Notes: generated by a model from the letters alone, not told the origin. A stretch of DNA of 64,000 bases from an uncultured virus (IMG/VR IMGVR_UViG_3300031759_000004) (IMGVR_UViG_3300031759_000004:1-64000); one strand, 5' to 3'. Shown: positions 7,953 through 64,000, numbered from the stretch's first letter. Numbers and translations are program-made.

Positions 7953-8348
7953 ATGAAACACGTGTTCACGGATTCGCGATTTCCCGGCTGTTCAGTGGAA
8001 AACAGGGGCGATGAACGCTTTGTGGTGGCGGAGAATGGCCAGCCGGTGGCCGCGTTCCGTTCCAGCGAACGACCGGGTGCTAAGGTGGTTAGTGAAGACT
8101 ACGCTCGCCGCCAGGCCGAGGCTTACTTTGACCGCATGGAGCGCTGGGCGCTGATGGAGTCGCCGCTGACACGGCAGGCTGACGGGCCGCGCTCAACGCC
8201 GGTGGAAGTGGAGCGGGCGATGGCCCGGGTGCGCGCGGAGCTGGACCCGACGCGCAAGAAGGCGCTGGAGCAGCGGGTGGTTCAGCTCATGCAGCGCGAA
8301 GAGTCCCTGGTGGACCAGGTTGTCCACCACCTGCTTTACGAGCGGTAG
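7953..8348 (+). CDS. Hypothetical protein with C-terminal ESLVDQVVHHLL tag-like helix
   Basis: ORF behind a GTAGCTA motif. Confidence 0.65.
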   Translation: MKHVFTDSRFPGCSVENRGDERFVVAENGQPVAAFRSSERPGAKVVSEDYARRQAEAYFDRMERWALMESPLTRQADGPRSTPVEVERAMARVRAELDPTRKKALEQRVVQLMQREESLVDQVVHHLLYER

Positions 8349-8746
8349 GGCCGGGTCAGGCGCTTGTCGGCGGCCTGGATGCGGCGGCGGGCCAGCCGGG
8401 CCTGCTTGGCGGCCTTGCGGGCACGGGCGCGTTCCAGCTGGCGGCTGAGGGCCTGGTTGCGCAGGCAGTAGCTGTAGACGTCGGCCAGGGTGATGGTTAC
8501 CTCCGCCGTGCGGCGCAGGCGGCCCTCGGGGCGCAGGGCGAGGACGTCGCCGCTGAGCAGGCCGACGATCAACCGGCGGCCCCGGTCGGCGCAGAAGTGC
8601 CCGTTCAGTTTGTCCCGGGTGATGCGCCACACCTCGCCGGGCATGGTCTTGACCTGGGGTTGACCTTGTTCATCCAGCACCGGCTGGGCACTCTTGCCAA
8701 AGCCCTTGGTGATCCGGACCGTTTTCGCTTTGCCGATTTCAATCAT
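8336..8746 (-). CDS. Basic hypothetical protein (probably early)
   Basis: ATG 6 nt after a sigma70-like -10 box. Confidence 0.7.
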   Translation of the reverse strand: MIEIGKAKTVRITKGFGKSAQPVLDEQGQPQVKTMPGEVWRITRDKLNGHFCADRGRRLIVGLLSGDVLALRPEGRLRRTAEVTITLADVYSYCLRNQALSRQLERARARKAAKQARLARRRIQAADKRLTRPYRS

Positions 8747-8752
8747 GCCGCC

Positions 8753-8781
8753 ATTGTATACAAAAATCGGCAGCTTGTCAA
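8753..8781 (-). promoter_or_regulatory. Sigma70-like promoter TTGACA-17-TACAAT
   Basis: Near-consensus boxes with an AT-rich upstream tract. Confidence 0.8.
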
Positions 8782-8794
8782 CATTAAAATTTAA

Positions 8795-9085
8795 TCAAGA
8801 CCAGTCGAGGACGCACGGTCCGACGGCGTAAATGCTGATTTTCTTGCCCTTCTCCGCCGCGTCGGCGATGACCTCGAAGACGTCGCTGGACTTCACCGCG
8901 AACGTCATCGGCTCGTCGCCGTCCTCCGTGGTGGTGAAGTCCTTCACCAGAAATCCGTTGGTTTCGGAGAAGCGCCATGACGCCAGGGAAGCGCGGTCAA
9001 GGCTGGTTGCCTTGGGCGGGGCTGGCGCGGCGATTTGAGCTTTTGACTCGGGTAGTATGTTTAGACTTTGGGATGGTGGTGCCAT
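8795..9085 (-). CDS. Hypothetical protein
   Basis: ORF 9 nt behind a GTTCT motif. Confidence 0.6.
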   Translation of the reverse strand: MAPPSQSLNILPESKAQIAAPAPPKATSLDRASLASWRFSETNGFLVKDFTTTEDGDEPMTFAVKSSDVFEVIADAAEKGKKISIYAVGPCVLDWS

Positions 9086-10690: not shown

Positions 10691-10692
10691 CT

Positions 10693-11118
10693 ATGACCAC
10701 AACGGTTGAACTGTTAAACCGGTTGTTCAAACCGGTACAGGTGCTGTTAGTGGACACGAACGAGGAGCTGGAGCGCATGCTGAATCGGATTTGTGCCTGC
10801 ACTATTGAGCACTATACCGGAGCACCACCGAAAAAAGTCTACGATGTCGTATTTGCGGACAGTGAGGCCAGCGAAGCCACCTTGGACCGGATCAAAGACT
10901 GTGGCCCTTTGATTCTGATCGGTTCCTATTTCGGACGTGTAGACTATCCCGTGGTGCTGCTCCCAAAAATAGACGAACACGCGCTGGAGCGCGTGTTCAC
11001 GTGTTTGAAGGTAAAGCTGCGAACGCCCGACGTCGTCGAGGCTATTTCGGAGCTGACGGCGTGCTCAGCTTCTGATGCACTTTGTTCAGCACCGCGCTGT
11101 GTGATGCGGGCAGCGTGA
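10693..11118 (+). CDS. Possible degenerate receiver (CheY-like) domain protein
   Basis: VLLVD..., YDVVFAD, LILIGS, LLPK pattern. Confidence 0.4.
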   Translation: MTTTVELLNRLFKPVQVLLVDTNEELERMLNRICACTIEHYTGAPPKKVYDVVFADSEASEATLDRIKDCGPLILIGSYFGRVDYPVVLLPKIDEHALERVFTCLKVKLRTPDVVEAISELTACSASDALCSAPRCVMRAA

Positions 11119-11683
11119 GGCGGCGGCACTCGTCCATGATGTGACCGAGCTGGCTGTTGTCCAGCTCCTGGCCGTCCATCAAAGCTTTCACAATGCCGCC
11201 ATCCAGCTCGCTGCCGGTCTGTTGGACGAACATGAGCAGCAGGATGTCCTTCAGCTGGGAGATTTCGCGCGGATTCAGGAAGCCTGACTTTTCGCCCCGT
11301 CCCAGGACCCGGTCTACGTCGCCCGGTCCTTCCATGTCCTCGGGTCCGCCAGGACCGCCGCCAGGCGGCATCACCCGGCGCGGAAAAGGCCGACGCGGCA
11401 CCGGGCGTCCCTGGGGAACAGTGCTGCCGGGCGGCTGGCCACCGGCAGGTGGTCCGAACATCTCCTCCCCGGCCTCGGCGAGCTTTTGAATCATGGTGGG
11501 TTTCACTTTTTCCCAGCGCGCTTCGGCCACTTCCTGGCTCACCGGCTCAAAGTACTGGCCGGTCTGCGGGTGCTGGAAACCTTCGGTCCGCTCCTGGATA
11601 AAGCGGGCGTGTATTTGTTCGAGCAGCTCGGTGCGTTTAGTCTCCAGTACCGGTCCGCCTTCAATGATCTGTTTAGCGTTCAT
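11042..11683 (-). CDS. Hypothetical protein sharing a ~40-aa module with 14739..16016; Pro/Gly-rich linker
   Basis: Likely start MNAKQIIE at 11683 (the longer track ORF overlaps a tRNA); ARFIQERTEGFQHPQTGQYFEPVSQEVAEARW module. Confidence 0.7.
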   Translation of the reverse strand: MNAKQIIEGGPVLETKRTELLEQIHARFIQERTEGFQHPQTGQYFEPVSQEVAEARWEKVKPTMIQKLAEAGEEMFGPPAGGQPPGSTVPQGRPVPRRPFPRRVMPPGGGPGGPEDMEGPGDVDRVLGRGEKSGFLNPREISQLKDILLLMFVQQTGSELDGGIVKALMDGQELDNSQLGHIMDECRRLTLPASHSAVLNKVHQKLSTPSAPK

Positions 11684-11714: not shown

Positions 11715-11791
11715 TGGCGCTCCAGGCCGGGATCGAACCGGCGACATGACCGCTTTAGAGGCGGCTCCTTTAACCACTCAGGCACTGGAGC
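11715..11791 (-). tRNA. Amber suppressor tRNA, anticodon CUA
   Basis: GCTCCAG/CTGGAGC acceptor stem, G73, encoded CCA; D-loop with GG; anticodon arm GCCGC-CTCTAAA-GCGGT; T-arm GCCGG-TTCGATC-CCGGC; 77 nt. Confidence 0.92.
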
Positions 11792-18390: not shown

Positions 18391-19499
18391 TAGTTTATGC
18401 GGCAGGCGACGAATCCCTTGGGCAGGTCCGTGGAGTTGTGATCGTAGCTGGCCAGGGTGTTCTGCCAGCCGTCGTTGGACACCACGTCCTCGGCCACTTT
18501 GCGGTCGTCTACGTCTACCAGTTCCAGGGCTTGTTTGCGGGCGTCTCTGCCGTACACGTCCTCCAGCCATTCCCACGGATCGACGTTTGGCTTGGTTTTT
18601 TCGATCCAGTTGTCCACGATGCTGTTCAGCTGGGCGACCCGGGCCTTGTTGGCCACGCGCGGCTCGCCGTTCTTCTTAAAGAACACCAGGTCGTCGCTTT
18701 CAATCTCGTCTTCCTCCACCATCTTTTGCAGCTGCTCCTCGTAGTCCATGTTGTTGACTTCGTCGCCGTAGTCCTCGTACGGGTCGCCAACGGCCTGCGC
18801 CAGTTTTTCCTTGTCGATGTAGTTGGCCAGGAAGTCGGCCCCAAACATGTCCGGTTCGTCGCGGACATCCTGGGCCACCCGGTCGACGGCAATCTTGCGG
18901 GCGGTGTCGTCGTCCTTGAACACCCACCACTGCTCGCGGCCATAGTCGACAACGAAGTTGGTGGTATCGTCCGGTGCGTTCTCGTCGTAGTCGCCGTTCG
19001 TGTCGTTAATCTCAAGCTCGTCCAGGTTGCAGTCCAATTCCTGGGACAGGCCGTAAAGGGCCTCCTGCACCCAGCTGGAAAATAGAATCTGGCTGATGGC
19101 CGCCCAGGGGTCGGCAGCCACGGCGGCGTCAAGGGCCGCTTCCTCGTCCTCGGGCGCGGTCGGCTCGGGCGCTGGCTCGGGATTCCCGGGCGGCAGCGGC
19201 ACCGGCGGCTCTTCGTTTTCCTTGACGATGTCGGCCAGCGGCTTGACCTTTTTCTCCGGCTCATGGATCACCTGCCGAATCTGCTTTTTGATCTTTTCGG
19301 TCTGCTCCAGCGAGCAGTCGTTGCAGAGCCGGTTGCGTCGGGCGTCGGCCAGGGTCTTGAAGCCGCCTTGCACGTGGCTGCACCCGGGGCACTCGGCGTA
19401 GTATTCGACGCTGTCCGGGTAGAGCTTCAGGTCCGCGTAGATGCCCGCGTTGCTGTGCTGATCCGTTGTCGGACGTTCGCGTTCAAGCAGGGAGATCAT
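18390..19499 (-). CDS. Acidic hypothetical protein with CxxC...CxxC Zn-binding motif and N-terminal SLLE
   Basis: MISLLERE start; CPGC and CNDC. Confidence 0.7.
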   Translation of the reverse strand: MISLLERERPTTDQHSNAGIYADLKLYPDSVEYYAECPGCSHVQGGFKTLADARRNRLCNDCSLEQTEKIKKQIRQVIHEPEKKVKPLADIVKENEEPPVPLPPGNPEPAPEPTAPEDEEAALDAAVAADPWAAISQILFSSWVQEALYGLSQELDCNLDELEINDTNGDYDENAPDDTTNFVVDYGREQWWVFKDDDTARKIAVDRVAQDVRDEPDMFGADFLANYIDKEKLAQAVGDPYEDYGDEVNNMDYEEQLQKMVEEDEIESDDLVFFKKNGEPRVANKARVAQLNSIVDNWIEKTKPNVDPWEWLEDVYGRDARKQALELVDVDDRKVAEDVVSNDGWQNTLASYDHNSTDLPKGFVACRIN

Positions 19500-20076
19500 C
19501 TGGGTTGGCACGCTTGCGGCGCTTGGTGGGGTAAACCGGCTGAGCCTGCATGACGAGCGTTCCGTTGGCGAGGATGGTGTCTCCGTCTGTAAATGGAAGC
19601 ACGCGCTGATCTCCCCACGCGCCGGATTTGGAGCCGTAGTTGCACCAGAATAAATTCCAGTTGTACGCGTGCTCTTTCCTCGGCTTTCGGCCAAACACGT
19701 GCCAGCCGCCGGGAGCAGCCCAGTTGATTCGTTCCATCGTGGTCTTGCTGCAAAATCCATCCGTGGCGACAGTGACCTTGTTGGTATTGTCTACGGTGAC
19801 GACGTACGTGTTGTGGTACTGTAGCGCGATGTGTTCTGCGTCTACCTGCACCAGCTTGGTTTCCGTGCCTTGGACCCGCTTGCTCTGGCGTCCGTTAAGC
19901 CGTTCGCCCCACCTTTGCCAGAGAAACACCGGACTGCCCGGCAGCATGAAGGGCACCTTGCCGGAAACGTACTGGGTCAGCAGCTTTTCTGGGTCTGGGT
20001 CAACAGGTGTAGCGGCTGGGTCGACGGGTTGCTCGTCGTCCAGCAGCATTTTGGTGATGGCGAAAGCATTAAGCAT
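19483..20076 (-). CDS. Hypothetical protein with N-terminal tag (AFAITKMLLDDE...DPDP)
   Basis: Coupled ORF in a minus-strand run. Confidence 0.7.
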   Translation of the reverse strand: MLNAFAITKMLLDDEQPVDPAATPVDPDPEKLLTQYVSGKVPFMLPGSPVFLWQRWGERLNGRQSKRVQGTETKLVQVDAEHIALQYHNTYVVTVDNTNKVTVATDGFCSKTTMERINWAAPGGWHVFGRKPRKEHAYNWNLFWCNYGSKSGAWGDQRVLPFTDGDTILANGTLVMQAQPVYPTKRRKRANPDDLPA

Positions 20077-20675: not shown

Positions 20676-20978
20676 CTAGAAGTAGCCTTGGCGCACCATG
20701 GAGAGGAAACTGGGATCGCTATCGTAACGAGCCAGCACCGCTTCGGCCTCGGCAAAGGTGTGGGCGGAGCGCAGGCTCCGCAGGTCGGCCTGGGTAAAGT
20801 CTGGATTGATCCAGCGGATGTAGCCCGCTGCCTGGCGCTTGAACTGGCGCAAGATGTCCGCCTCTTTCGCGGCGTTCTCCTGGCCGATGGCGCTGGCGTA
20901 CTGGGCGAACAGGCGCTCGGGATCGTCCGGCGGCGGGCCGCCGTTAAGCAGGGCGTCTACAATCTGGCCAGCCTTCAT
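20676..20978 (-). CDS. Tagged hypothetical protein (MKAGQIVDALLN...DDP)
   Basis: N-terminal tag motif. Confidence 0.7.
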   Translation of the reverse strand: MKAGQIVDALLNGGPPPDDPERLFAQYASAIGQENAAKEADILRQFKRQAAGYIRWINPDFTQADLRSLRSAHTFAEAEAVLARYDSDPSFLSMVRQGYF

Positions 20979-21163
20979 GAACGGTCCAGCAGGCGGCTGA
21001 CGATGCTTTCAGCCGTAGGCTTGGCGTCCTCTTTGTCCTCTGCCGGTTCAGCTTTGTCGGCCTTGTCGGCTTTAGCCGTTTTGCCGCGCAGGTGAATCTT
21101 GCCTTTGTTCTGGCAGAACCCGCAGGTGCAGCCTTTCTTGTGTGCTTCGTTTAATCGGCTCAT
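20975..21163 (-). CDS. Small Cys-motif protein with C-terminal ESIVSRLL
   Basis: CTCGFC; coupled to neighbours. Confidence 0.6.
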   Translation of the reverse strand: MSRLNEAHKKGCTCGFCQNKGKIHLRGKTAKADKADKAEPAEDKEDAKPTAESIVSRLLDRS

Positions 21164-21916: not shown

Positions 21917-22438
21917 TTAAAAAATAAAGCGTGCCCGATGCTCGTGGAACAGGTCCAGCTGATTCGGGTCTGGCGGCGGTGCCGGAGGGGCGTCCGGATC
22001 ACGCTGTACCGGGCCGTTTTGAATTGTAGACAGCTGGCGCTTGCGGGCCTCCTCGGCGGCAGCCGCCTCCCGCTCGCGGAAATCCGGGACGGTGGACCAC
22101 TCGTCCGCGTTGTTCTGGTCGATGTAGCCGTAGCTCTTGAATCCGATTTTGATCGGTATCTTGAATTCGCCGGGCCGGGACTTCCAGGTCTTGGTGGCCC
22201 CGTTGCGCCGCGCCTGGTACGGTGCGCCTTCCACGCCGCGCTTGCGGCTCTTGTAGCGCTCGGTGCGGTGGTAGAAAGTGTTGGCCGAGTGGCAGTTGTA
22301 GGCCGTGATTTTACCTGTCGACGCCTCCTGGTGCATGGCGTCGATGAAGTGGCCGGGGTCGACGTTATCCAGCTCTTCGGTGTTGTCGAATTCGTCGGCT
22401 TCCAGCAGCGCGCTGACAATGAGGCTAGCGTTTGCCAC
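21917..22438 (-). CDS. Tagged hypothetical protein (ANASLIVSALLEAD)
   Basis: GTG start at 22438; RRNGATKTWKSRPGEFKIPIKIG phage-type motif. Confidence 0.7.
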   Translation of the reverse strand: MANASLIVSALLEADEFDNTEELDNVDPGHFIDAMHQEASTGKITAYNCHSANTFYHRTERYKSRKRGVEGAPYQARRNGATKTWKSRPGEFKIPIKIGFKSYGYIDQNNADEWSTVPDFREREAAAAEEARKRQLSTIQNGPVQRDPDAPPAPPPDPNQLDLFHEHRARFIF

Positions 22439-23351: not shown

Positions 23352-23361
23352 TACGCCTTAA

Positions 23362-23871
23362 CTACGCGGCTGGCTTGTCGCACAGTTTGACCTCATTGGC
23401 CAGCTGGGCCTCGATGATCGGCTTAAGGTTGGCTCGGCGGTAGCTGGGTCCCTTGATCCACTTTCCGTCCTCGCGCTTGTGGCCGTCAATGAACTTGGAC
23501 ATGTTGCTGCCGTGCACTTCCTGCCAGCCCGGTTCCAGCGCGGTGCCGCTGGCCACGCCGTTGCCGATGGTAAATACCAGCAGGTCGATGTTGGCGTCGT
23601 AAGCGTCTACAATGGCCGAAAGGGCCTGGGCCGGGTCCCGCTCGTCGTACATGGGCTTGTCGGCGGCCCAACAGGAGAAGTTGTCGACGGCGGTGCCGCG
23701 ATTGTTGGTCTCAAATTCCAGGCCCCAGGCGTTGGCCAGTTCGCACAGCTCCTCGGCCAGCCAGCGCAATCGGCCCATCCGCGTTTCCAGCGGCGGCAGG
23801 CAGGGTTTGGACGGGATCGCCTGTTCGGCGTGGACCATGAAGTCTTTAACTTGGGCTTGAGCGTTTATCAT
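23362..23871 (-). CDS. MazG/PRA-PH-like nucleotide pyrophosphohydrolase
   Basis: WLAEELCE, EVHGSNMSK, DGKWIKGP motifs. Confidence 0.8.
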   Translation of the reverse strand: MINAQAQVKDFMVHAEQAIPSKPCLPPLETRMGRLRWLAEELCELANAWGLEFETNNRGTAVDNFSCWAADKPMYDERDPAQALSAIVDAYDANIDLLVFTIGNGVASGTALEPGWQEVHGSNMSKFIDGHKREDGKWIKGPSYRRANLKPIIEAQLANEVKLCDKPAA

Positions 23872-25526: not shown

Positions 25527-25569
25527 GCGTGAATTTAGAACGGTATTCGCCGTCCGTAGTTAGGTCATT

Positions 25570-27948
25570 ATGGCGAGCCAAACGCTCCAGTATCTTAAAC
25601 TCGACTACCAGAGCCAGAAAGACGCGATGCTACAACGCATTCGCGACCGCTGGCCCCAGCGCTGGAACGATTTCCTGGCCAATAGTTTTGGCATTGTTCT
25701 TGTAGACATTGTCGCCTGGGCGCTGGCGACGCTGGCTTTCACCGTCAACCGGGTGGCGGGTGAAAATTTCATCCCGACCATGACGCTGCGGGAGTCCGCC
25801 GTTCGCGTGGGCGCGCTGACGGGCTACGAGCTGCGCGGGCCGGTTCCGGCCACCCTCTCCTGCGAAGCCGCCATCAGCACGGCGTTCGACCGCAGCACCG
25901 GCCCTGACGTGGTCATCGCCCAGGGCACCTTGATCCGCAGCTCCGACACCAGCGCGCTGCCTTACGAGGTGGTGCAAGACTACACGATCATGCACGGCTA
26001 CGTCACGCCCCGGACCCTGGTGGCGGTGTTTTCGCCGATCCTGAGCGGCACCAACGTGATCAACACCTTCATGGTGCTGACCAACGGGTCGTCCCTGGCG
26101 ACGCCGGTGGACTCCACCATCGACCTGTCGGCGTACCTCAGCGTCGGCCAGGACCTGATCCAGATCGGGGTCGACGACACGGTGGAGAGCAACTACTACA
26201 ATATCACCAACCTGAACGCGGCCCCGGGGGCGGTGTCGGCGTACAGTCAAATTGTCCTGAACACCCCCTGGGCTGGAACCACCGGGCGCTACCAGGTTAA
26301 TGTATACGAACGTCGGATACAAGTGATTCAGGGACAAACCGTGACGGACCAGTTTGTCGCGCCGATCAACACAACCGGCTACTCGGTCATGCTCAGCCAG
26401 ACGCCGGTGATTTTCGGCAGCATCCAGGTGACGGTTAACGGCGAGCCGTGGACGCAGGCTCCCACCATTGGAATTTTGAACGACCTGGCGACCGTGTTCC
26501 AGGCCAAGACCTATGTCACGGGCGACACTTCCGTGCAATTTGGCGACGGCATCTTCGGCGCGTTGGTGCCGTCCGAGGCGGCCATCAGCGTAACGTACCG
26601 GGTGGGTGGCGGCTCCGCCGGAAACATCGGTTTGAACACTATCAGCACCACAATCACCGGGCTGGTGGAAACGATTTCCAGCCCGATCACCGTGCAAGTG
26701 ACCAACACAACCTCGGTCGGCCAGGGCGGCCAGGACGCTGAGACTTTGAACCAGGCTCGGGTGAACATCCCCTACTACACCCGGACCAACGACCGGGCCG
26801 TGACGCTGGACGACTACCAGACCATCGCACAGCAGTACAGCAACGCTCAGTACGGGTCGGTGGCCTACGCGCGGTCGACTGTGCGGACGGAAAACGCGCT
26901 CCTGGAGGGCAACATCGTTTCGATCTATGCCTGGACCACCGGCCCGGGCGGCGGCTTGATTCCGCTAGGCGGCCAGCTCAAAGGGGCGGTGCGCGATTAC
27001 ATGCAGACCAAAGCCGTGGGCACGGACTACGTGCAGATGCTGGACGGGACTTCCAGGCCCGTGCCGATCAGCTTGCAGTTCGCCGTGCTGCCCGGCTTCA
27101 GCATTTCGGACATCAAGAGCCTGGTGGTCCAGACCATTGCCAGCCAGATCACGGCGTTGCGCCCGGGCGATCCTGTGATTTATTCGGACCTGGTCTCCGC
27201 CCTGGTTAACACTGCCGGGGTGGACAACCTGGTGATGGCCACGCCGATCAATAACCTGTACCCCGCAGACGCCACGGAGCTGTTTACGGTGCCCGACGAC
27301 ACGTACGTGTATACGCTGGACACCAGCAGTGCCGGAGCCGTGACGGCGGCGGACGGAGCAGCCAGTCAGTACAGTGTACAGCTACCCATGTATCCGTTGC
27401 AGCCGTGGTCGCTGACGCTCATGCTGGGCGTGAACAGTCTGTCCCTGCTGCCCTTCCTGTCGCAGGATTCCAGCGGGCGGGTCCAGGTGCAACAGGCGCG
27501 GGTGGTGGGGGCCAACATCAGCACGGACGACAGCTACCCGTCCACGATCAACCTACTGACCGGCCAGGCTACTTTCTACGTGCTGGGTGCGCCGGGCGAC
27601 CTGACCATGGAGCTGGTGACGGCGGTGGGCTATTCGGCGGAGCGGGTGGTCAACCTGTACATCGGCTACCAGGGCGATCTGTCTCAGGCCGCTCGCCGCC
27701 AGATTCGGTCAGCGCTCTTGTCCTGGGGCCAGGGTTTCGGTGTGGGCAGCTCCATCTACGCGGCCCGCGCGACGGGCATTTCAGCCTCGGTGGTCAGCGT
27801 CAGCGACATGGTGGCCAGCATTCCCGGCGTGACTTCTGTGAACCGGGTGGCGCTGGATACGCCCGCCAATACCGACAACCTGGTCACGGCGGCTGACTAC
27901 GAACTGCTGCGCCTCGGGACTGTGGTGCTGAACAATCAACTTGACTGA
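25570..27948 (+). CDS. Baseplate wedge protein (T4 gp6/baseplate-J-like)
   Basis: LDYQSQK...WNDF, VQFGDGIFG, YRVGGGSAGN, DRAVTLDDY motifs. Confidence 0.9.
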   Translation: MASQTLQYLKLDYQSQKDAMLQRIRDRWPQRWNDFLANSFGIVLVDIVAWALATLAFTVNRVAGENFIPTMTLRESAVRVGALTGYELRGPVPATLSCEAAISTAFDRSTGPDVVIAQGTLIRSSDTSALPYEVVQDYTIMHGYVTPRTLVAVFSPILSGTNVINTFMVLTNGSSLATPVDSTIDLSAYLSVGQDLIQIGVDDTVESNYYNITNLNAAPGAVSAYSQIVLNTPWAGTTGRYQVNVYERRIQVIQGQTVTDQFVAPINTTGYSVMLSQTPVIFGSIQVTVNGEPWTQAPTIGILNDLATVFQAKTYVTGDTSVQFGDGIFGALVPSEAAISVTYRVGGGSAGNIGLNTISTTITGLVETISSPITVQVTNTTSVGQGGQDAETLNQARVNIPYYTRTNDRAVTLDDYQTIAQQYSNAQYGSVAYARSTVRTENALLEGNIVSIYAWTTGPGGGLIPLGGQLKGAVRDYMQTKAVGTDYVQMLDGTSRPVPISLQFAVLPGFSISDIKSLVVQTIASQITALRPGDPVIYSDLVSALVNTAGVDNLVMATPINNLYPADATELFTVPDDTYVYTLDTSSAGAVTAADGAASQYSVQLPMYPLQPWSLTLMLGVNSLSLLPFLSQDSSGRVQVQQARVVGANISTDDSYPSTINLLTGQATFYVLGAPGDLTMELVTAVGYSAERVVNLYIGYQGDLSQAARRQIRSALLSWGQGFGVGSSIYAARATGISASVVSVSDMVASIPGVTSVNRVALDTPANTDNLVTAADYELLRLGTVVLNNQLD

Positions 27949-28262
27949 TGAACGCCAAACAAACCGTAGCCGCCCTGCTGGAAGCCGCCAACCCGGATGA
28001 CATTGATCCGACGCGGGAGGCGGCGCGCTACACGCAGACAATGGCCTTCGACAAAGGCATTGCCGACATAATGCGCGACGCCCGGCAGCTTTATCTCTCG
28101 CTGGAAAAGGACGGCACGCTGGCCACGCTGTTGAAAGAGGGAGACTACGACGAAAGTTCAGTCGCCCAGGCGATCATGTGGCGGGCGATTGAACGACGCA
28201 GCGCTCCCGGTGCGGCGCGGGCGCTTAAGCGACTCAAGCGCCTTTGTCCCTACAACTTCTGA
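27948..28262 (+). CDS. Tagged hypothetical protein (MNAKQTVAALLEAANPDDIDP)
   Basis: N-terminal tag; coupled to the baseplate gene. Confidence 0.7.
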   Translation: MNAKQTVAALLEAANPDDIDPTREAARYTQTMAFDKGIADIMRDARQLYLSLEKDGTLATLLKEGDYDESSVAQAIMWRAIERRSAPGAARALKRLKRLCPYNF

Positions 28263-41044: not shown

Positions 41045-41366
41045 CAAAAACGGCGTCAAGACGCACCGGCACTGGCTGGTCTTTTCGGCGGACAGTCAGG
41101 AAACGCAGGTGGCCGTCTGGGCGCAGTGCGGCCTGTCCACGCGCGCGATTGCCAGCAAGGCCAACATCACGGTGGCCCAGGCGCAGTACCGCATCTCCAA
41201 GGCGCAGCGGGCCGTGGGCGCGAAGTTCCGGGCGGACTACCGCAACGGCTCAGAGCTAGCCTACGCGGCTGCCGATTTCCTGGCCCCGCGTCTGCGGAAG
41301 GTGATCATGGACACGGTGGCACCTAAGTTCATGCCGCTGGCCGCCGAGGGCGTACTTAAGAAGTGA
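41031..41366 (+). CDS. Putative helix-turn-helix DNA-binding protein
   Basis: GLSTRAIASKANITVAQAQYRI. Confidence 0.65.
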   Translation: MSRSSKNGVKTHRHWLVFSADSQETQVAVWAQCGLSTRAIASKANITVAQAQYRISKAQRAVGAKFRADYRNGSELAYAAADFLAPRLRKVIMDTVAPKFMPLAAEGVLKK

Positions 41367-41641
41367 CGAGCAGGGCTAAGCGGCTAATCCAAGATTCCGA
41401 TGACATTGACCTTGAGCTGGCGCAAAGCCAGCTCAAGGACTTGGCCCGCCTGGTGATCGTCAGCGAGCGCCATCCCTGGGCGAGCCATTCAGAACGACTG
41501 TACTGGTCCAACGAGTACGGCTGGGTGGACAACCTGGAGTCAGCTGACCGGTTTTTGCCCAACGAACTTACTTCGATGCCGCACGAGGCCACCGGACTGT
41601 TGAATCCCTACACCGGCGAGCTAAGCTGGTTTCAAGAATGA
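41363..41641 (+). CDS. Tagged hypothetical protein (RAKRLIQDSDDID)
   Basis: GTACTTA 4 nt upstream; YWSNEYGWV. Confidence 0.65.
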   Translation: MTSRAKRLIQDSDDIDLELAQSQLKDLARLVIVSERHPWASHSERLYWSNEYGWVDNLESADRFLPNELTSMPHEATGLLNPYTGELSWFQE

Positions 41642-47197: not shown

Positions 47198-47386
47198 ATG
47201 AAAAAGCAGCTTACACTCGCCGAGCAGCGCCAGCTCGCCCAGGCCAAGCAGGCGCGCACCCTGGACGAGGCCATCGAGGCGACGCCCAAATCCGCCTTGG
47301 AACAGCTCACTGAAATTGACCCGGCGCACCCGGAAGAGGGCGTGGCGGGCGACCTGTTTGACTCGCCGCTGTTTGCCGGTAATTAA
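47198..47386 (+). CDS. Small protein with an acidic C-terminus
   Basis: ORF directly behind the promoter. Confidence 0.6.
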   Translation: MKKQLTLAEQRQLAQAKQARTLDEAIEATPKSALEQLTEIDPAHPEEGVAGDLFDSPLFAGN

Positions 47387-47390: not shown

Positions 47391-47798
47391 ATGACTGCCG
47401 ATAAAATCGTCACCTGCCTGCTGGAAGACAACTGGAAGGGCAAGCGATCTGCGCCCCAGCCTGCGCCCCAGCCTGCGCCCCGGAGCAGCGTGGTGGCCAA
47501 CAAGCACGCCAAGCGCAACCACAAGTTCGACAAGCTGTGCTGCGCGCTGCCGGGTGAAATTCAGAACCTGGCGCGAGAAGTCTACAACGCGTGGCGCACG
47601 ACTCCTTTCGCCCCGGAGCTGGAGTTCAAAAAGCTACAGCGCAACGACGCCTTCTGGTCCATTCGGATCGGGCGAGCCTACCGCGCGATCTGCTATAATG
47701 CCGACACCATGTGGATTTGGTGCTGGATCGGCACCCACGAGGAATACAACAAGGTGCTCAACCAGGTGGCCAGCTGGAAGCCACCGATGCTGCCGTGA
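47391..47798 (+). CDS. RelE/ParE-like toxin-fold protein with an N-terminal LLE tag
   Basis: LEFKKL...WSIRIGRAYRAI...WIGTHEEYNK; MTADKIVTCLLED start. Confidence 0.8.
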   Translation: MTADKIVTCLLEDNWKGKRSAPQPAPQPAPRSSVVANKHAKRNHKFDKLCCALPGEIQNLAREVYNAWRTTPFAPELEFKKLQRNDAFWSIRIGRAYRAICYNADTMWIWCWIGTHEEYNKVLNQVASWKPPMLP

Positions 47799-47820: not shown

Positions 47821-48243
47821 GTGAAGACGAGCGCCGACATCGTCAGCTGGCTGCTGGAGGAGCGGACCAACACCCTGGTCAGCGTGGTGCTGGACGACCG
47901 CAGCCAGCGCGAGCTGCTCCGCCGGGTCCCGGCGCGCCACGAAAATGTATACGTCCACCACATGACGGTCGCGTTCAAGCCGGACGCGGACGTGTTCGAG
48001 CGGGAATACCTGCCCCGGCACGGCCAGCCGGTGGCGCTGACGGTCACCGGCTATGCCCTGGACAGCCAGGCGCAGGCGGTGGCGGTGGACGCATACAGTG
48101 AGAACCCGCACCCGCACATCACTATTTCCGTGGCGGACGGGGTGCTGCCGGTGTACAGCAACGAGCTGCTGGCCCGGGGCGGCTTGAAGCGCCTGCCGAG
48201 ATTTACACTGACCGGAAAGTTTACCGTGGAACCGTTGAGCTAG
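47821..48243 (+). CDS. 2H phosphoesterase with an N-terminal LLE tag
   Basis: Two HxT motifs (HHMTV, PHITI); KTSADIVSWLLEE start. Confidence 0.8.
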   Translation: MKTSADIVSWLLEERTNTLVSVVLDDRSQRELLRRVPARHENVYVHHMTVAFKPDADVFEREYLPRHGQPVALTVTGYALDSQAQAVAVDAYSENPHPHITISVADGVLPVYSNELLARGGLKRLPRFTLTGKFTVEPLS

Positions 48244-49615: not shown

Positions 49616-49623
49616 TTATGAGC

Positions 49624-50127
49624 ATGGACAATTCAAAGGCCGAGCAGGTCGTCACGAAGATGCTGGAGAACGAGCCGCTAAACCCGGATCGCTACCACAA
49701 GTTAGACCGGGCGCGCAAGTCGTTTACCGATCTGCGGAACCTGCGCCGCAAGGCCCTGGAGATCGACCAGCAGCTGGGCCAGTGCATCGACCTGGAGCGC
49801 ATGCTGGCCTACCACGGACTGGAACGGTCGGACGTGGCCCGGTATATCCCGGGTGAGGCGGTCGGATCGACGGACAACTACCGGATGAAAGTTGCCGCGC
49901 GGATTTGCAACCACGAGGGCTGGTGCCGGTTATCCGCTCGGCGGATTGTGCCAGCGGACTGGGGCGACACCTGCCCTGAATGTCAGAATCCAATCGTCGA
50001 CGGCGAAGTGCCGGTGGTGGGTAGCGACTTGCGCAAGACATACGCCCGCCACCTTGTTGGCGTCGAGCTGAAGGACGGGCGTAAGGTTTTCTTCAAGGAG
50101 ATGATCCTGCCGAAGCACCAGTACTGA
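49624..50127 (+). CDS. Tagged hypothetical protein (KAEQVVTKMLEN) with Cys motifs
   Basis: GTAATTA 5 nt upstream. Confidence 0.7.
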   Translation: MDNSKAEQVVTKMLENEPLNPDRYHKLDRARKSFTDLRNLRRKALEIDQQLGQCIDLERMLAYHGLERSDVARYIPGEAVGSTDNYRMKVAARICNHEGWCRLSARRIVPADWGDTCPECQNPIVDGEVPVVGSDLRKTYARHLVGVELKDGRKVFFKEMILPKHQY

Positions 50128-50128: not shown

Positions 50129-50383
50129 ATGGCCGCCAGCAAGCCAGTTCAGCAGGTGGTCAATGGCGGCGCTCCGCGCTTGACCTGGGTTTTTGAGGAC
50201 GGTACGCACGACCCGTTTTACGCGGTCTACGTGGACGGCAAGCTGGTGGCGACGAATCCGCGCAGCGACCTCAACCACGTGCTGGACGCTTTGGGCGTGC
50301 CCCAGGAAACTGTTTACGTGCCCAGGGGTTTTTCAGGTGACTTTCCACAGCTTTTGACGGCGCTAAAGACCTACACCAAATGA
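50129..50383 (+). CDS. Hypothetical protein
   Basis: Coupled ORF. Confidence 0.6.
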   Translation: MAASKPVQQVVNGGAPRLTWVFEDGTHDPFYAVYVDGKLVATNPRSDLNHVLDALGVPQETVYVPRGFSGDFPQLLTALKTYTK

Positions 50384-50700
50384 GCCGAGCCAGGCAGCTG
50401 ATCCAGGAGATGGACGTAGACGATCCGTCGCAGTACCTTAACCGGGCATACTCCGCGCGTCTGCTGTACTGCTACAGTTGCAATAGCGACTTGCGCCAGC
50501 CGGGAGCGGTTAACCGCACCTATCGCTGGGCCTGGAAAAGCAGCCCTAAGACTGTGGGCGGTCACTACGACTTTTTTACAGGTCAGTTCGTGCCGGACCA
50601 GGAAGTCGAGCTGCCTGTGCCGGGTCGGTACTGCCAAGACAACAGCGACAAATGCTCAGGTTGTGGCGACACCCTGGACGTACCGGCGCGTCAGTCTTAG
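50380..50700 (+). CDS. Tagged Zn-ribbon protein (RARQLIQEMDVDDP)
   Basis: CYSC...CSGC. Confidence 0.65.
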   Translation: MSRARQLIQEMDVDDPSQYLNRAYSARLLYCYSCNSDLRQPGAVNRTYRWAWKSSPKTVGGHYDFFTGQFVPDQEVELPVPGRYCQDNSDKCSGCGDTLDVPARQS

Positions 50701-50710: not shown

Positions 50711-50821
50711 GCCTGCTGGCTGGGTAGAGCGCGCAAGTAAACTTCCCCTAAGTGGTCACGCCTGGGGATGAAGGCAAATCGTGAATTCTCCTTCCTTGCG
50801 CGTTCTACCCGGCCCGCAGGC
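50711..50821 (+). ncRNA. Orphan structured RNA: long closing stem, three-way junction, kissing loops
   Basis: GCCTGCTGGCTGGGTAGAGCGCGCAAG pairs with CTTGCGCGTTCTACCCGGCCCGCAGGC (G-U pairs on +); inner hairpins TCCCC/GGGGA and GAAGG/CCTTC with complementary loop segments TCACG/CGTGA. Confidence 0.7.
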
Positions 50822-51273
50822 TACTCCAGCCTGCGTTCCAGCCGGTTCCCGTTAATCTCCAGGTCGTTGAAGTTCGCCCGTGCGATCTCCACGGCGGCCT
50901 TGGCCGCCTGCATGAAGTTCAAATGCTGGGCGTAGGTGAACAGCGCGCGGCGGTTCTGGTCGTAGACGTTTACGGAATGCCTGCGGGCGTACTCGCTGGC
51001 GCTGCCGGTCTCGATGTTGACCAAGACCAGCCCGAAGTTGGGCGTGTCCACGTACCGGTACCAGGCTCCGTCGCTGGGATCGGCCAGGTCCGGGTTGTAG
51101 GGGATGTCCTCGTCCGCCATGAACGTGGAGTCGTACTGAAAACCCGCCTTTCGCAGCAGCTCGGTGGCCTGCTGCTTGGGCGACGGCATGCGCCGTAGAA
51201 ACTGCTCGGGATCGTCTAAGCGGTTTTCCGAGCCATCTTCCAGTAATCGACGGACAAGGACGGCGGCGTTCAC
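50821..51273 (-). CDS. Tagged hypothetical protein (NAAVLVRRLLEDG...DDP)
   Basis: GTG start overlapping the protease stop (GTGA). Confidence 0.7.
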   Translation of the reverse strand: MNAAVLVRRLLEDGSENRLDDPEQFLRRMPSPKQQATELLRKAGFQYDSTFMADEDIPYNPDLADPSDGAWYRYVDTPNFGLVLVNIETGSASEYARRHSVNVYDQNRRALFTYAQHLNFMQAAKAAVEIARANFNDLEINGNRLERRLE

Positions 51274-52055: not shown

Positions 52056-52078
52056 GTCTTAAATACGTAGTTAACGGC

Positions 52079-52585
52079 GTGAACGCACACGGACTTGTGA
52101 ACGCCCTGCTGGAAGCGCCGGGGGCGGACGATTTTGACCTGGACCAGTACGCCGCAGGCGCGCTCAACCGGCAGAGCTGGGAAGCGCCAAATCCGGAAAA
52201 GCACCTGTGGATCGAAGCACTGAAGCCGCTAGGCTTTCAAGCCTACCAGGGAAAATACAAAGACCACGGCCAGATCATTCGCTACTGGGCGGCGGCGAAA
52301 GAATTAAAAATGGTCAGCGGCCAGGACCTGAGCCTGGTGGCCTCGGCGTACAAGGACGGCAATGTCGGCCTGACGATTTACCACCAGCAGCACAACGGCA
52401 GAACACCGCTGGGAGTCTGGACCAGCCGACCGCTGACGCTTGCCGAGCTGCCGCAGGCGACGCGCACGATCATCGACCGGGCGCAGAAAGCGGAGGTGTA
52501 CATTGGCTTTAGCAGCACGTACGACGAACGCGACGCCCTCCAGCAGGCGCTGGGCGAATACTCGTTGATTTACCCGCTGGCGTGA
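52079..52585 (+). CDS. Tagged hypothetical protein (NAHGLVNALLEA...DDFD)
   Basis: GTAGTTA 5 nt upstream. Confidence 0.7.
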   Translation: MNAHGLVNALLEAPGADDFDLDQYAAGALNRQSWEAPNPEKHLWIEALKPLGFQAYQGKYKDHGQIIRYWAAAKELKMVSGQDLSLVASAYKDGNVGLTIYHQQHNGRTPLGVWTSRPLTLAELPQATRTIIDRAQKAEVYIGFSSTYDERDALQQALGEYSLIYPLA

Positions 52586-52998: not shown

Positions 52999-53072
52999 CG
53001 CGGGTTGGTGTACAGAGCACGACTGGCTCATAACCAGTAGGATGGTAGGTTCAACTCCTCCACCCGCAACCA
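52999..53072 (+). tRNA. tRNA-Met(CAU), initiator-like
   Basis: CGCGGGT/ACCCGCA with C1:A72 mismatch, ACCA end; ACTGG-CTCATAA-CCAGT; TTCAACT T-loop; D-loop lacks GG. Confidence 0.85.
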
Positions 53073-55516: not shown

Positions 55517-55955
55517 GGTAGTTTTCGATCACGTGCCGCACCGGGCAGTTGTCGCTGGAGGAGCACTGGAAAAGAATGTAGCCGATGAAACCGTTGCCGG
55601 GGACGTGGGTGATGCGGAACACGCTGGTTATTGGTTCGTTTCCGACGATGGTCCGGATGGTGATGGTCGCGGCGGTACGGTCGCGGCGCAGCAGGTTGAC
55701 CCACAGGGCTTTGTAGGTTTCCAAATCTTCGGGATGCACCAGCCTTTCCCACTGGCCTTCGTTTACTTGATCCAGACGGGCGTCAAACGCCTGCTGGTAG
55801 GCTTCGTTGATGAAGATGGTTTCGCCCTCCTTGTTCACGATAAAGCACGGGATCGGACAAACGTCGATGTAGCGCTCCAGAATGCTCTGGCGGGCTACAA
55901 AATGTTCAGCTAGTTGGGTTGCGAAGCTCACACCTATAGATACTCGGCCAGTCAA
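55500..55955 (-). CDS. Stand-alone PAS-domain protein
   Basis: PIPCFIVNKEG..IFINEAY...W..LVHPED. Confidence 0.8.
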   Translation of the reverse strand: MTGRVSIGVSFATQLAEHFVARQSILERYIDVCPIPCFIVNKEGETIFINEAYQQAFDARLDQVNEGQWERLVHPEDLETYKALWVNLLRRDRTAATITIRTIVGNEPITSVFRITHVPGNGFIGYILFQCSSSDNCPVRHVIENYLSKLP

Positions 55956-58941: not shown

Positions 58942-59072
58942 ATTTCAATCTTTCAGTCGTTCACTCTCGTCGATAGGTTAACCTGGTGGACGGTTCGACG
59001 GCGACCGTCCGCAGGCAGCACATTGGGTGCTGACATACCTACAGAACTGTTTTTCTCGCGTAGTTACCGGGA

Positions 59073-59546
59073 ATGAATGAACGCGCGCTAGCGACCGCCG
59101 CCCGACTGCTGGAAACCGAGGACTGGGAGTTTACTACCCAGCTGGGGCCGAAGGCGATCACTGTATACGGCACGGCGCACGACGAGACGGAGGAATTCAA
59201 CCTGACGATTCGCTGGGCGCTGATGGTGGACTTGCGGGAATGGGGCGTAAAGAGCATGGACGTAGACATTCGCTCAGTCCAGGGCCACGGCACGATTAAC
59301 CACGACGAGGACGGTTCGCTGGTGCGCGCGGTGACGATCAGCTGGCCGCAGAGGCCGCGTCCAACCGGCACCCTGGACGATCCCACGGAGGAACTGGCGG
59401 CCTACATGGCCGAGCCGAACTGGAAGATCAAGACCACCTTCCGGCGGGACAACGATGTTGACGGTAAAACCATGAGCCTGACGGTCAAGCCGTCGTTTGC
59501 GGAGATTGACCTACGCAGACAGATTATTGAAATCGAGTTCTACTGA
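59073..59546 (+). CDS. Tagged hypothetical protein (ALATAARLLETED)
   Basis: GTAGTTA 6 nt upstream. Confidence 0.7.
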   Translation: MNERALATAARLLETEDWEFTTQLGPKAITVYGTAHDETEEFNLTIRWALMVDLREWGVKSMDVDIRSVQGHGTINHDEDGSLVRAVTISWPQRPRPTGTLDDPTEELAAYMAEPNWKIKTTFRRDNDVDGKTMSLTVKPSFAEIDLRRQIIEIEFY

Positions 59547-62117: not shown

Positions 62118-62202
62118 TCTTGGTGACTTTGGGGTCCGGGAAAGTGCGGTCGTTATTCGCTGCGACCGCACTTTTGTTTTTTCAAATCGTAGTTAGGCCA
62201 CT

Positions 62203-62964
62203 ATGGCAACCAGCAACGCTAGCGAGCCGCGAGTGACAGCGGCTCAAAGCCCCGACACGCTGCCTCTGCGCGGCTACGCCGTGGAGCAGCTGGCCAACTA
62301 CATCATGCGTCAGCTTGGCGCGCCGACCTGGAACGTCGAGCTGACCAACCAGCAAATTTACGACTGCATCCAGGACTCCTTGGGTTTGATTTCTCAGTGG
62401 GTCCCTTTGACGAAAGTTGGCACCCTCCCGCTCGTACGGGGCCAATTCAAATATCTACAAGGAGTGGACGTCGGCCTTGGCGTAGCTCGTATCGACTTTG
62501 TCGAACCCAACCCAGTCCCCACTGAGATTTTTTATGGCAACCTGATCAACCCCGCGCCGCTGTTTCGGACCGGGTTGGACGAGTACGACACCTTTCTGCG
62601 CTGGCGCAAAACCTGGCAGCGGGTCACGTCCATCAGGCCCGACTGGTTTTACGACGAAGTCGAAGAGGCCCTGTACATCCACAATCCGATTGAGCGCTAT
62701 CAGGCGGGCGTGATCTGCTACTTCCCGCAGACGGACACCACCAAGCTGAACCTGACGGCGGCAGACTGGGTCAAGCGCATGTCACTGGCCAAGTCCCGTT
62801 TGCTGCTGGGCGAAGTGTGGATGAAATTTTCTGGCGCAATTCCGGGGCCGATGCAGAACATCCAGCTGGACCAGACGAAGCGGGAGAAGGCCCAGGAAGA
62901 AGTGGACCGGCTGATGGAGCAGCTCAAAGGCATGCAGCTGTCTACACCAGCCATGATCGACTGA
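62203..62964 (+). CDS. Neck/head-completion protein (T4 gp13-like)
   Basis: YIMRQLGAP..NVELT..Q..DCI..SL; WVKR..LA..R..LG...KFSG.IPG. Confidence 0.82.
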   Translation: MATSNASEPRVTAAQSPDTLPLRGYAVEQLANYIMRQLGAPTWNVELTNQQIYDCIQDSLGLISQWVPLTKVGTLPLVRGQFKYLQGVDVGLGVARIDFVEPNPVPTEIFYGNLINPAPLFRTGLDEYDTFLRWRKTWQRVTSIRPDWFYDEVEEALYIHNPIERYQAGVICYFPQTDTTKLNLTAADWVKRMSLAKSRLLLGEVWMKFSGAIPGPMQNIQLDQTKREKAQEEVDRLMEQLKGMQLSTPAMID

Positions 62965-62965
62965 C

Positions 62966-63808
62966 GTGAACAAGTACAATCCAAAAGGTCTGCGCCGCGA
63001 CCACCGGGGCCGCCTCCTGGACAAATGGGGCCGCACAATGGAAGTGGACTGGGACGAATTCGAGAAGCGCCGCCGGACACCCGGCAAGCCGCTGAAATAC
63101 CCGCAGGTAGTCAACCCGCTGCATGCGGCGGCCAAGCTCAAGTCGACCGTTGAGGCCGTAAACTTTGACGATCCGGATCAGCTGCTGACGCGTTTTACCA
63201 ACTTTGTCGTTTTCACTGAAGTGCAGAAGCGCAACCACCGCTTCCAGTCGTACATGCTGAAGTATTACTACACCGACAGGGTGTGCTCGTACGGTGAAGG
63301 GCACGAGGGACACTGGACAATTCACGAGCCGTGGGCTAAGCGTTTTCTAACGGTTAAGGCAGCTGAAGCTGCCATAATGGAAATCATCAAAGGTCAGCGC
63401 TACATGGACATTTTCTTGGCCTGGGACGACCCGCGCGGCTATCAAATAGCCGAAGTTTCGCCGAACGGCACTGACATTGTGCGCCGCGTGCCTCACCAGC
63501 TTCGGCATCCGCAGGCGCGCACGGCGGAGTCCATTGTAGACGCTCTCCTGGAGAGCAACCTGGAGGACCGGCTGATGGCCGTGGCCCGGAAGATCAAGCA
63601 CTGCGGCGACTACGGCTGCCTGTTTTACCACCCGGGACTGAAGACGGTCCACTGGACTGCCGCCGACTCTGATGGTTCTCCGGACTTTACTGACTTGGAC
63701 GAGATTAAAAAGATGCTGAAGCTGCCGGGTGTGGAGGAGGTTGTGATCGGCGACGAGTGGTCGCCAGGCAAGGAAAAAGGCTACCAGCGCTTGCGCTATG
63801 AAAGCTGA
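62966..63808 (+). CDS. Hypothetical protein with an internal TAESIVDALLES tag
   Basis: Coupled to the neck gene. Confidence 0.7.
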   Translation: MNKYNPKGLRRDHRGRLLDKWGRTMEVDWDEFEKRRRTPGKPLKYPQVVNPLHAAAKLKSTVEAVNFDDPDQLLTRFTNFVVFTEVQKRNHRFQSYMLKYYYTDRVCSYGEGHEGHWTIHEPWAKRFLTVKAAEAAIMEIIKGQRYMDIFLAWDDPRGYQIAEVSPNGTDIVRRVPHQLRHPQARTAESIVDALLESNLEDRLMAVARKIKHCGDYGCLFYHPGLKTVHWTAADSDGSPDFTDLDEIKKMLKLPGVEEVVIGDEWSPGKEKGYQRLRYES

Positions 63809-64000
63809 AGCCATAGTGGCCACCCTCCTGGAAGTGGCGGACCCGGACGACCTCGATCCGCTGGCGTACGCCGACGCCACCGTGAATCCGCAGCCCAACA
63901 CGGACACCGATCCGGAGCGGCTGACGCGGGCGCTCCGCGACGCCCTGGTGGAGCGCGGCTGGCGCAACATCCGCGTGTTTCCGCCCGAGGAAGAAGGTGT
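63798..64000 (+). CDS. Tagged hypothetical protein, truncated by the window (MKAEAIVATLLEVADPDDLDP)
   Basis: ATG at 63798, open to the window end. Confidence 0.7.
   Translation, partial: MKAEAIVATLLEVADPDDLDPLAYADATVNPQPNTDTDPERLTRALRDALVERGWRNIRVFPPEEEG

Follow-up and report, generated by a model that had tools for sequence, protein, structure and literature searches.

In bacteriophage T4, propeptides of 10-19 residues target the internal proteins IPI-III into the prohead core and are then cleaved off (excerpts of PMC9026906, PMC5694885, and PMC7697877); the prohead protease gp21 cuts after L/I-x-E (excerpts of PMC9026906 and PMC5694885), and an Asp at the cut position prevents cleavage while leaving targeting intact (excerpts of PMC9026906, PMC5694885, and PMC12373910). 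The excerpt of PMC12373910 speaks of "at least 10" internal proteins across T4-related phages. In phage P1, an N-terminal stretch of DarB suffices to load a protein, even a foreign reporter, into the capsid for delivery (excerpt of PMC9024508). Diverged gp21-type proteases of SPN3US, phiKZ, and 201phi2-1 cleave behind the Glu of a short motif (A-x-E in SPN3US, where the residue following the cut is preferably Ser), and the propeptides of such giant phages, found on many head proteins, are thought to target proteins into the prohead (excerpts of PMC10052503 and PMC5694885). Here we describe a recurring peptide of about 12 residues (the tag) at the ends of many proteins encoded in a 64,000-nt stretch of DNA from an uncultured virus (IMG/VR IMGVR_UViG_3300031759_000004, positions 1-64,000; the window), which is the first 64 kb of a single viral contig of 129,045 bp (61% GC, rated 57% complete). 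Judged from its sequence, the tag is a candidate capsid-targeting propeptide resembling the T4 capsid-targeting sequence (CTS), expanded to at least 15 proteins on this incomplete contig, a reading that we believe slightly more than we doubt.

A short peptide shared by otherwise unrelated proteins

We called 149 genes on the contig with a simple codon-usage gene caller (148 of the proteins entered the Pfam scan), and compared them with related genomes from IMG/VR (G001-G010; the present contig is G000), five related records being retrieved whole. In IMG/VR there are 46 related loci, whose capsid proteins are 60-100% identical and whose contigs reach 238 kb; we would guess that these phages are of soil and sediment origin. 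Roughly one in ten proteins of this phage and its relatives starts with the tag, whose consensus is M-x-A-x-x-[IVL]-V-x-x-L-L-E; it begins at residue 3-4 and ends at residue 12-17. A first-pass annotation of this DNA had listed 13 N-terminal peptides, and translation reproduces all 13 (27948, 63798, 47391, 47821, 49624, 52079, 59073, 50380, and 41363 on the plus strand; 22438, 51273, 20978, and 20076 on the minus strand). The three internal or C-terminal copies in the same list are present in the named genes, but the positions given for them are gene starts and not those of the peptides.

A strict pattern for the tag has 14 N-terminal matches at residue index 2-12, against 0.75 expected from the internal rate of 17 matches in 37,308 positions (Poisson P ~1e-13 over the 149 genes), while in 1000 shuffles of residues 2-30 the count averaged 0.75 and never exceeded 5, so that the tag is indeed commoner than in shuffled N-termini. 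With a loose pattern there are 19 matches against 2.4 expected (shuffles: mean 2.5, maximum 8). Since both patterns were composed after inspection of the data, we added a leave-one-out test and a matrix applied to independent genomes as controls: 13 of the 15 seed tags, when left out, still place among the first 25 of 38,649 windows, the weak two being those at 19483 and 67535. Our own expectation-maximization (EM) script recovered the tag de novo among the N-termini of G000, G001, G004, G007, and G009; as its site lists at z>0.5 include many false members (shuffled controls yield 27-131 "sites"), we relied only on its consensus and likelihood gap, and used pattern counts beside them. A loose tag detector for pairs of tagged and untagged homologs gave mostly false calls and was set aside. 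Past the tag, within 15 residues, an acidic/proline motif follows in 19 of 42 tagged proteins, compared with 45 of 658 untagged N-termini and 344 of 8936 internal windows (this pattern, too, is post hoc).

The tag persists between genomes of 61% and 52-53% GC. In G001 and G002, whose capsid protein is ~88% identical to that of G000 at a GC content of only 52-53%, the matrix built from G000 tags found 14 N-terminal, 3 C-terminal, and 5 internal matches (G001, 268 genes) and 17, 0, and 7 (G002, 288 genes). Orthologs keep the tag in 9 of 11 matched pairs, and one of the two exceptions probably has a start miscalled by the gene caller. A tag profile (A1) gave 12 matches in G001 and 22 in G002, none in G003, G004, or G005 at E<=10, and, at E<=0.01, three in G006, two in G009, and none in G007, G008, or G010. 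Other relatives have flavours of their own: 23 proteins of G004 begin with M-x-A-R-x-x-I-D, many of them in tandem runs; G007 has ..I-I-x-H-L-L-E-D-D-E followed by D-F-x-x-K-D-L; and G009 has M-N-A-K-Q-x-I-E-x-L-V. Such lineage-specific flavours would suit a phage-encoded receptor. A profile of the G004 flavour (A4) had no match in five more relatives, an uninformative result for a profile of ~8 informative positions and no positive control. In G002, the de novo search for N-terminal motifs ranks first a leader other than the tag, also shared by several proteins and reading roughly M-I-P-E-T-G-T-x-x-D-F-K; it lists 22-29 sites for this leader at z>0.5, with a likelihood far above shuffles.

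The first-pass annotation held that the rest of each tagged protein is unrelated, and this is borne out: after removal of the tag, none of 120 cargo pairs in G000 match at BLAST E<1e-3, with 0 of 153, 6 of 210, and 12 of 496 pairs in G001, G002, and G004, respectively. It seems very improbable to us that the tag reflects mere shared ancestry or a recombination joint, that is, a 5′ end kept by duplicates or a patch of homology with no addressing role. Such an origin would suit the tandem runs in G004, a few of whose tagged genes share a C-terminal domain (the 12 pairs above), and the internal-protein loci of T-even phages are known hot spots of cassette exchange; the excerpt of PMC12373910 uses the wording "genomic hotspot". 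The third codon positions of the tag, however, hold little information, and its Ser, Arg, and Leu residues switch codon families, so the DNA is not conserved beyond what the peptide requires, and it is the peptide that is under selection, as opposed to some signal in the DNA or RNA. The absence of alike cargo pairs in G000 and G001 and the retention of the tag across the difference in GC content also speak against it.

Among the cargo of this genome and its relatives we found domains of a ParE-like toxin, lysozyme, 2H phosphoesterase, methyltransferase, DMP19-like protein, and HAD phosphatase, of which the first five are plausible early-acting proteins. Pfam had no match on 16 of the 18 tagged proteins of this genome, and neither NCBIfam nor PADLOC matched any of the 18. 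As to what the cargo does, the Protein Atlas was uninformative, a profile search of the PDB with alignment A5 yielded no match below E 0.06, and Foldseek on the A5 model gave no match at E<=0.001; homolog searches with the 27948 and 47391 proteins returned only themselves.

Head machinery, upstream motifs, and candidate roles of the tag

The contig encodes a head machinery of the T4 type. A 558-aa protein (genome 86301-87977) matches Peptidase_S77 (PF03420) at 49.3 bits (cutoff 27); its first ~190 residues match the gp21-type prohead protease, and the remainder is scaffold-like. The capsid protein (genome 88084-89487) matches Gp23 (PF07068) at 103 bits (cutoff 24.4), from residue 72 onward, and PHROGs annotates the two as head maturation protease (phrog_207) and major head protein (phrog_138). 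We predict that the protease is specific for L-x-E because of the conserved sites in these proteins: L5-x-E7 at the N-terminus of the protease-scaffold protein is invariant in 11 orthologs, a [LIV]-x-E-[SA] site lies ahead of the conserved C-terminal tail of the same orthologs, and residues 1-63 of the capsid protein contain four conserved [LM]-x-E sites, the last just ahead of the conserved body. In addition, the first protein of the head module has ..[LI]-[LI]-G-E near its N-terminus in all six of six genomes, duplicated in two.

The cut position of the tag differs between the two protein ends. In N-terminal tags (G000, G001, and G002) it is Glu after L-L in 36 of 41, whereas Asp occupies it in all four copies that lie 8 residues or fewer from a C-terminus (Fisher P 8e-4 against the N-terminal Glu). 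A Glu-Ser junction occurs at or just before the helix in 6 of the 18 copies that are not N-terminal, and the same junction precedes the scaffold tail. One tagged family (genome 85209; 9 homologs) lies inside the head module itself, two genes upstream of the protease. AlphaFold models of this family and of the ParE-like protein at 47391, both of modest quality (mean pLDDT 66 and 70), show an N-terminal helix, a low-confidence stretch, and a body in the first (residues 1-15 at pLDDT<50), and a helix at residues 3-12, a stretch at pLDDT<50 (residues 14-29), and an alpha/beta domain in the second; this modelled helix-linker-body layout fits an appended tag. By eye, the scaffold tail ..E-S-V-x-L-V-R-R-L-S resembles the core of the tag, a mimicry that the matrix of tails described below did not bear out.

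The N-terminal helix of the capsid protein, A-A-I-M-L-E-N, has a pattern similar to that of the tag and is conserved in 10 of 10 orthologs (BLASTP of this N-terminal region against T4 gp23 residues 13-44 gave only E 4.4, which is not evidence). The N-terminus of T4 gp23 directs proteins to GroEL, according to work cited in the excerpt of PMC10052503, and the leader could by analogy be a signal of folding or stability, either directing proteins to a chaperonin or acting as an N-terminal degradation or timing signal. The conserved capsid helix would be in keeping with this. Pfam shows no phage chaperonin or Clp/Lon-type protease on the incomplete contig, and the flavours vary between related phages, whereas the sites recognized by host chaperones and proteases are conserved; the C-terminal copies with Asp are also left unexplained, and we consider this explanation improbable.

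The heptamer GTAnTTA occurs 38 times, counting both strands, and a called gene starts no more than 60 nt downstream of 24 of these sites. In each of the four genomes examined, no 7-mer is more enriched than GTAGTTA in the 30 nt ahead of gene starts, and the motif is placed 12-16 nt before the start codon. Every one of the four genomes has GTAnTTA ahead of its sheath gene, and the baseplate wedge, neck adaptor, and first head-module genes follow the motif too; several very large genes, likely structural, are headed by it as well. Many tagged genes had been said to sit behind this motif, and the counts agree: 12 of 16 tagged genes in G000, 14 of 18 in G001, and 13 of 21 in G002 belong to units led by GTAnTTA, compared with 34 of 133, 89 of 250, and 63 of 267 untagged genes; the link is weak in G004 (4 of 32 tagged genes, P 0.09). 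Two other classes of upstream motif were observed, a sigma-70-like TTGAC-N15-19-TATAC with an A/T-rich stretch upstream, and GTTCT[AT], found 8-21 nt before the starts of the helicase, DnaB, polymerase, SbcC, and baseplate hub genes (example sites of the two: 8781 (-), 11846 (+), 25542 (-), 31862 (-), and 32987 (+)). Units led by GTTCT[AT] contain 0, 1, and 1 tagged genes in G000, G001, and G002, respectively. These observations suggest three promoter classes.

The S77 protease and Gp23-type capsid protein, the L-x-E that ends most N-terminal tags of G000, G001, and G002, the conserved L-x-E sites of the head proteins, the co-location with virion genes behind GTAnTTA, the tagged family in the head module, and the unrelated cargo would all fit loading into the head. 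The first-pass annotation had proposed a portable tag that loads diverse effectors into the head for injection; the indirect tests are all consistent with the portable head-loading part of that proposal, while several results fit it less well, and delivery "for injection" is something that we purely infer.

The following results weigh against loading into the head. The best capsid-protein match among deposited phages has less than 30% identity, so that none is close (a nucleotide search among deposited phages returned no match to the contig either). In the tagged family of the head module, 6 of the 9 members have Asp, not Glu, at the cut position; [LIM]-x-E is present at residues 9-18 in only 14 of 23 G004 leaders, and the leaders of G009 have L-x-E in only 2 of 9, with no enrichment. 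A matrix from 13 distinct scaffold tails placed no tag among its top 14 matches in G000, G001, G002, and G004, and with the tag matrix the protease N-terminus and the capsid helix fall outside the top 60 windows, so that neither search ties the tag by sequence to a head protein. The acidic/proline motif lies past the proposed cut site, where the T4 model does not explain it, and 18 of the 59 matrix matches in G000, G001, and G002 (~30%) are internal or C-terminal, a placement that the T4 CTS is not known to have. The GTAnTTA units are presumably late, judging by the genes they hold, which makes their timing an assumption, and the tagged gene at genome 96607 sits after a sigma-70-like promoter. 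In G002 the tag stands on a NUDIX-dTMP kinase fusion (102 bits for the dTMP kinase domain, cutoff 83), which fits head loading poorly because such an enzyme is expected to work during replication. Finally, the cargo is slightly acidic, and the internal proteins of T4 are basic.

Several of these points would be accommodated by the main rival, namely that the helix docks accessory proteins to some other phage-encoded hub (an enzyme assembly, a compartment, or a regulator) with no need of proteolysis. A docking helix could stand at N-termini, at C-termini, and inside proteins alike; the conserved part consists of an amphipathic helix and a second motif past the supposed cut site; some of the cargo is of a replication type (the NUDIX-dTMP kinase fusion, HAD phosphatase, methyltransferase); the flavours of the lineages would fit any phage-encoded partner; and the matrix searches revealed no likeness of the tag to either the scaffold tail or the protease N-terminus. 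However, no candidate for the hub was identified, and the rival leaves unexplained the split of Glu and Asp between N- and C-terminal copies, the link to units with virion genes, and the tagged family inside the head module. We regard it as unlikely.

If the tag does target the capsid, the tagged genes would be made together with the virion genes, and the amphipathic helix of ~12 residues would dock each protein to the prohead core while the shell forms, its partner being perhaps the scaffold-protease protein or the partners of that protein. The S77-type protease would then cut after the Glu of L-L-E, freeing the cargo inside the head, and the cargo would exit with the DNA at the next infection. 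C-terminal copies with Asp would either remain uncut at that point or be released at the Glu-Ser junction before the helix. Docking, cleavage, presence in the virion, and ejection are all steps that we infer. More tentatively still, and with more doubt than belief, we propose that a clade of uncultured 200-240-kb phages with a T4 core may run an addressing code, in which a dialectal 12-residue helix readable at either protein end puts 5-10% of the proteome into the head to be delivered along with the DNA. Nucleotide enzymes, methyltransferases, RNA-repair-type phosphoesterases, lysozyme, and a toxin domain would be among this cargo, and a single residue would be the switch that frees or tethers it, Glu standing for cut-and-release at N-termini and Asp for an uncut or tethered state at C-termini.

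Tagged genes and neighbouring features

Two tagged genes of the window follow T4-type structural genes. A GTAGTTA at 25556..25562 (+) precedes the baseplate wedge gene (25570-27948, +; phrog_219, 1.2e-28), whose stop overlaps a tagged gene at 27948..28262 (+, 104 aa); the latter has the tag MNAKQTVAALLE and the acidic motif PDDIDP (E 1.2e-11, by construction), and its G002 ortholog keeps the tag. Similarly, a GTAGTTA at 62189..62195 (+) lies ahead of the neck adaptor gene (62203-62964, +; phrog_211, 2.8e-13), after which come a gene for a 280-aa protein (62966-63808) with an internal copy, AESIVDALLE, at residues 187-196 (63524..63553, +; E 0.066), and, two genes downstream of the neck adaptor, a tagged gene for 228 aa (63798..64000, +) that runs to 64484 outside the window. 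The homolog of the latter in G001 (450 aa) keeps the tag and has a phage lysozyme domain.

On the minus strand, a GTAGTTA at 23359..23365 heads a run from 23351 to 17689 that contains three tagged genes and one C-terminal copy. The gene at 21917..22438 (173 aa) has orthologs in G001 and G002 that keep the tag; that at 20676..20978 (100 aa) has Asn instead of Glu at the cut position; and that at 19483..20076 is a weak member with Asp at the cut position, outscored by 120 windows in the leave-one-out test, for which the tag-compatible start is the ATG at 20076 (the gene caller took the TTG at 20094). The C-terminal copy, AESIVSRLLD (20984..21013, -), ends a 62-aa protein encoded at 20975-21163. 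Another C-terminal tag-like helix (8298..8345, +) reaches the end of the protein encoded at 7995-8348, and the G001 ortholog of that protein ends in a scoring tag copy.

Further tagged genes lie in the region from 47 to 60 kb. The ParE-like toxin-domain protein (47391..47798, +; 135 aa; Pfam PF24732, 1.9e-14) follows a GTAATTA at 47379..47385 (+), 5 nt before its start, and consists of the tag helix, a proline-rich linker, and the toxin domain (residues 57-121); its G001 ortholog conserves tag and toxin domain and lacks 18 linker residues. Next to it is a tagged gene at 47821..48243 (+, 140 aa), whose G001 ortholog is tagged and has a weak tRNA-ligase CPD domain match below the Pfam cutoff. 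In the tagged protein at 49618..50127 (+, 169 aa) the tag ends in M-L-E and begins 3 residues later than other tags. The tagged gene at 50821..51273 (-, 150 aa) is downstream of the papain-like peptidase gene, both being preceded by a divergent GTATTTA at 52060-52066 (-), and a GTAGTTA at 52067..52073 (+) lies ahead of the tagged gene at 52079..52585 (+, 168 aa). A GTAGTTA at 59060..59066 (+) lies ahead of the tagged gene at 59073..59546 (+, 157 aa), which has a weaker tag (E 1.7e-4).

The variant leaders S-R-A-R-Q-L-I-Q... (50380..50700, +), like the dominant G004 flavour, and S-R-A-K-R-L-I-Q... (41363..41641, +) were weak items of the first list, and both belong to the G004-like flavour. A gene absent from that list (11042..11683, -) has the variant flavour M-N-A-K-Q-I-I-E, its start being set to respect an overlapping tRNA. 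Beyond the window, tagged genes start at genome positions 67535, 85209, 96607, and 104816. A 441-aa protein encoded after the polymerase gene (36724-38049, +) may be a further carrier missed by the strict matrix: it has homologs in four relatives, and all start with a related leader (..L-A-K-L-V-L-T-E-M-A-M-D-L..P-D-F-I), the G004 homolog with the G004-flavour tag.

Annotation with Pfam and PHROGs makes a T4-type core visible on the contig, together with many accessory genes. Structural genes besides those of the head include the tail sheath, gp27/gp5-like hub proteins, a baseplate wedge subunit, and a neck adaptor; further genes are those of a family-A DNA polymerase, a DnaB-like helicase, an NAD ligase, and a UvsX-like recombinase. 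Accessory genes unusual in a phage are those of a patatin-like phospholipase (41638-42522), a papain-family cysteine peptidase (51270-52055), which has tagged genes on both flanks, and two small PAS-domain proteins (42814-43269 and 55500-55931), all identified by Pfam. Pfam also finds a Ro60/TROVE-vWA ortholog (53541-55238). The 956 nt ahead of its gene contain a tRNA-Met (52999-53072) and no called gene, and no Y-RNA family reached the Rfam threshold. A short (309 aa) adenylosuccinate-synthetase-like protein (genome 94855-95784; Pfam 5.4e-26) and a MazG-type nucleotide pyrophosphohydrolase (23362-23871, -; phrog_671), together with the family-A polymerase, form a set reminiscent of the PurZ/MazZ genes of phages that swap adenine for 2-aminoadenine.

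A tRNA with the anticodon CTA, which reads the TAG stop, is located at 11715-11791 (-; labelled tRNA-Pyl by ARAGORN; Rfam tRNA, 57.9 bits). TAG terminates 34 of the 149 genes, and just three same-frame neighbour pairs are split by TAG alone; thus, there is no sign of general recoding by this tRNA. A 59-aa open frame (genome 68120-68299, -) consists almost entirely of eight copies of Q-L-S-E-V, reported by Pfam as pentapeptide repeats. Two neighbouring genes that lie upstream of the head module (genome 78986-81467) encode proteins of 334 and 505 aa, which may be late transcription factors; the former protein has weak, sub-threshold matches to Sigma70 region 2 and Mor, and a tag-like helix 19 residues from its C-terminus.

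Comparison with known packaging signals

If the tag does load proteins into the head, the genome alone would list the proteins delivered at the first moment of infection, which are otherwise hard to find, among them early counter-defence and take-over proteins, most without a known family. What in T4 is a curiosity of three proteins would then be an addressing system that scales and evolves, has dialects, and possibly includes a switch between release and tethering, and the tags would offer new short signals for packaging foreign proteins into phage heads. If another hub is addressed instead, that hub would be an unknown organising centre in a widespread phage group (the 46 IMG/VR loci). Signals of T4 and P1 have already been used for packaging foreign proteins (excerpts of PMC9026906 and PMC9024508). 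A search of open-access text with CTS wording turned up no publication that describes this clade, its tag, or any comparably large expansion of CTS-like peptides in uncultured phages.

Like the signal of DarB in the Dar antirestriction system of P1, the tag would be an N-terminal signal for capsid targeting. The Dar N-termini have no consensus according to the excerpt of PMC9024508, whereas a clear consensus recurs here on many proteins; P1 has no separate scaffold, and here the tag is coupled to a protease-type site. With the giant phages the tag shares the Glu-Ser junction that recurs before the scaffold tail and in a third of the copies away from the N-terminus. Most propeptides of the giant phages, however, are 111-254 residues long and belong to families of paralogs, compared with 12 residues on unrelated proteins here.

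The cargo-loading peptides of encapsulins are another case of a short terminal peptide that addresses diverse cargo to the inside of an HK97-fold shell; they typically stand at the C-terminus, attach to the shell protein, and stay on the cargo uncleaved. An encapsulin gene plays no part here: the Pfam listing of the 148 proteins contains no encapsulin family, the only HK97-type shell protein found is the Gp23-like one, and the tag ends in a protease-type site.

The closest likeness is to the CTS of T4, which is found on IPI, IPII, IPIII, and Alt and is removed by gp21. In both phages a short N-terminal peptide stands on otherwise unrelated proteins (ending in L/I-x-E in T4, and in L-L-E in most N-terminal tags of G000, G001, and G002), an S77 protease is found together with a gp23 capsid protein, and the N-termini of protease and scaffold have a short L-x-E leader. 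The leaders of IPII, IPIII, gp22, and gp21 in the T4 record have the same layout as the tag, but by eye they share this layout only, with no sequence likeness. The tag differs further in having 12 residues with a conserved acidic/proline motif past the cut site; in occurring in C-terminal and internal copies; in the number of its carriers, at least 15 here and 14-17 in the relatives compared with the three internal proteins of T4; in the position of those carriers, which are scattered among tail, neck, and accessory genes and not confined to one or two loci; and in its slightly acidic cargo, which includes enzymes and a toxin domain. What is new compared with the T4 CTS is thus a longer, bipartite candidate signal, found at either protein end, with dialects between lineages and far more carriers.

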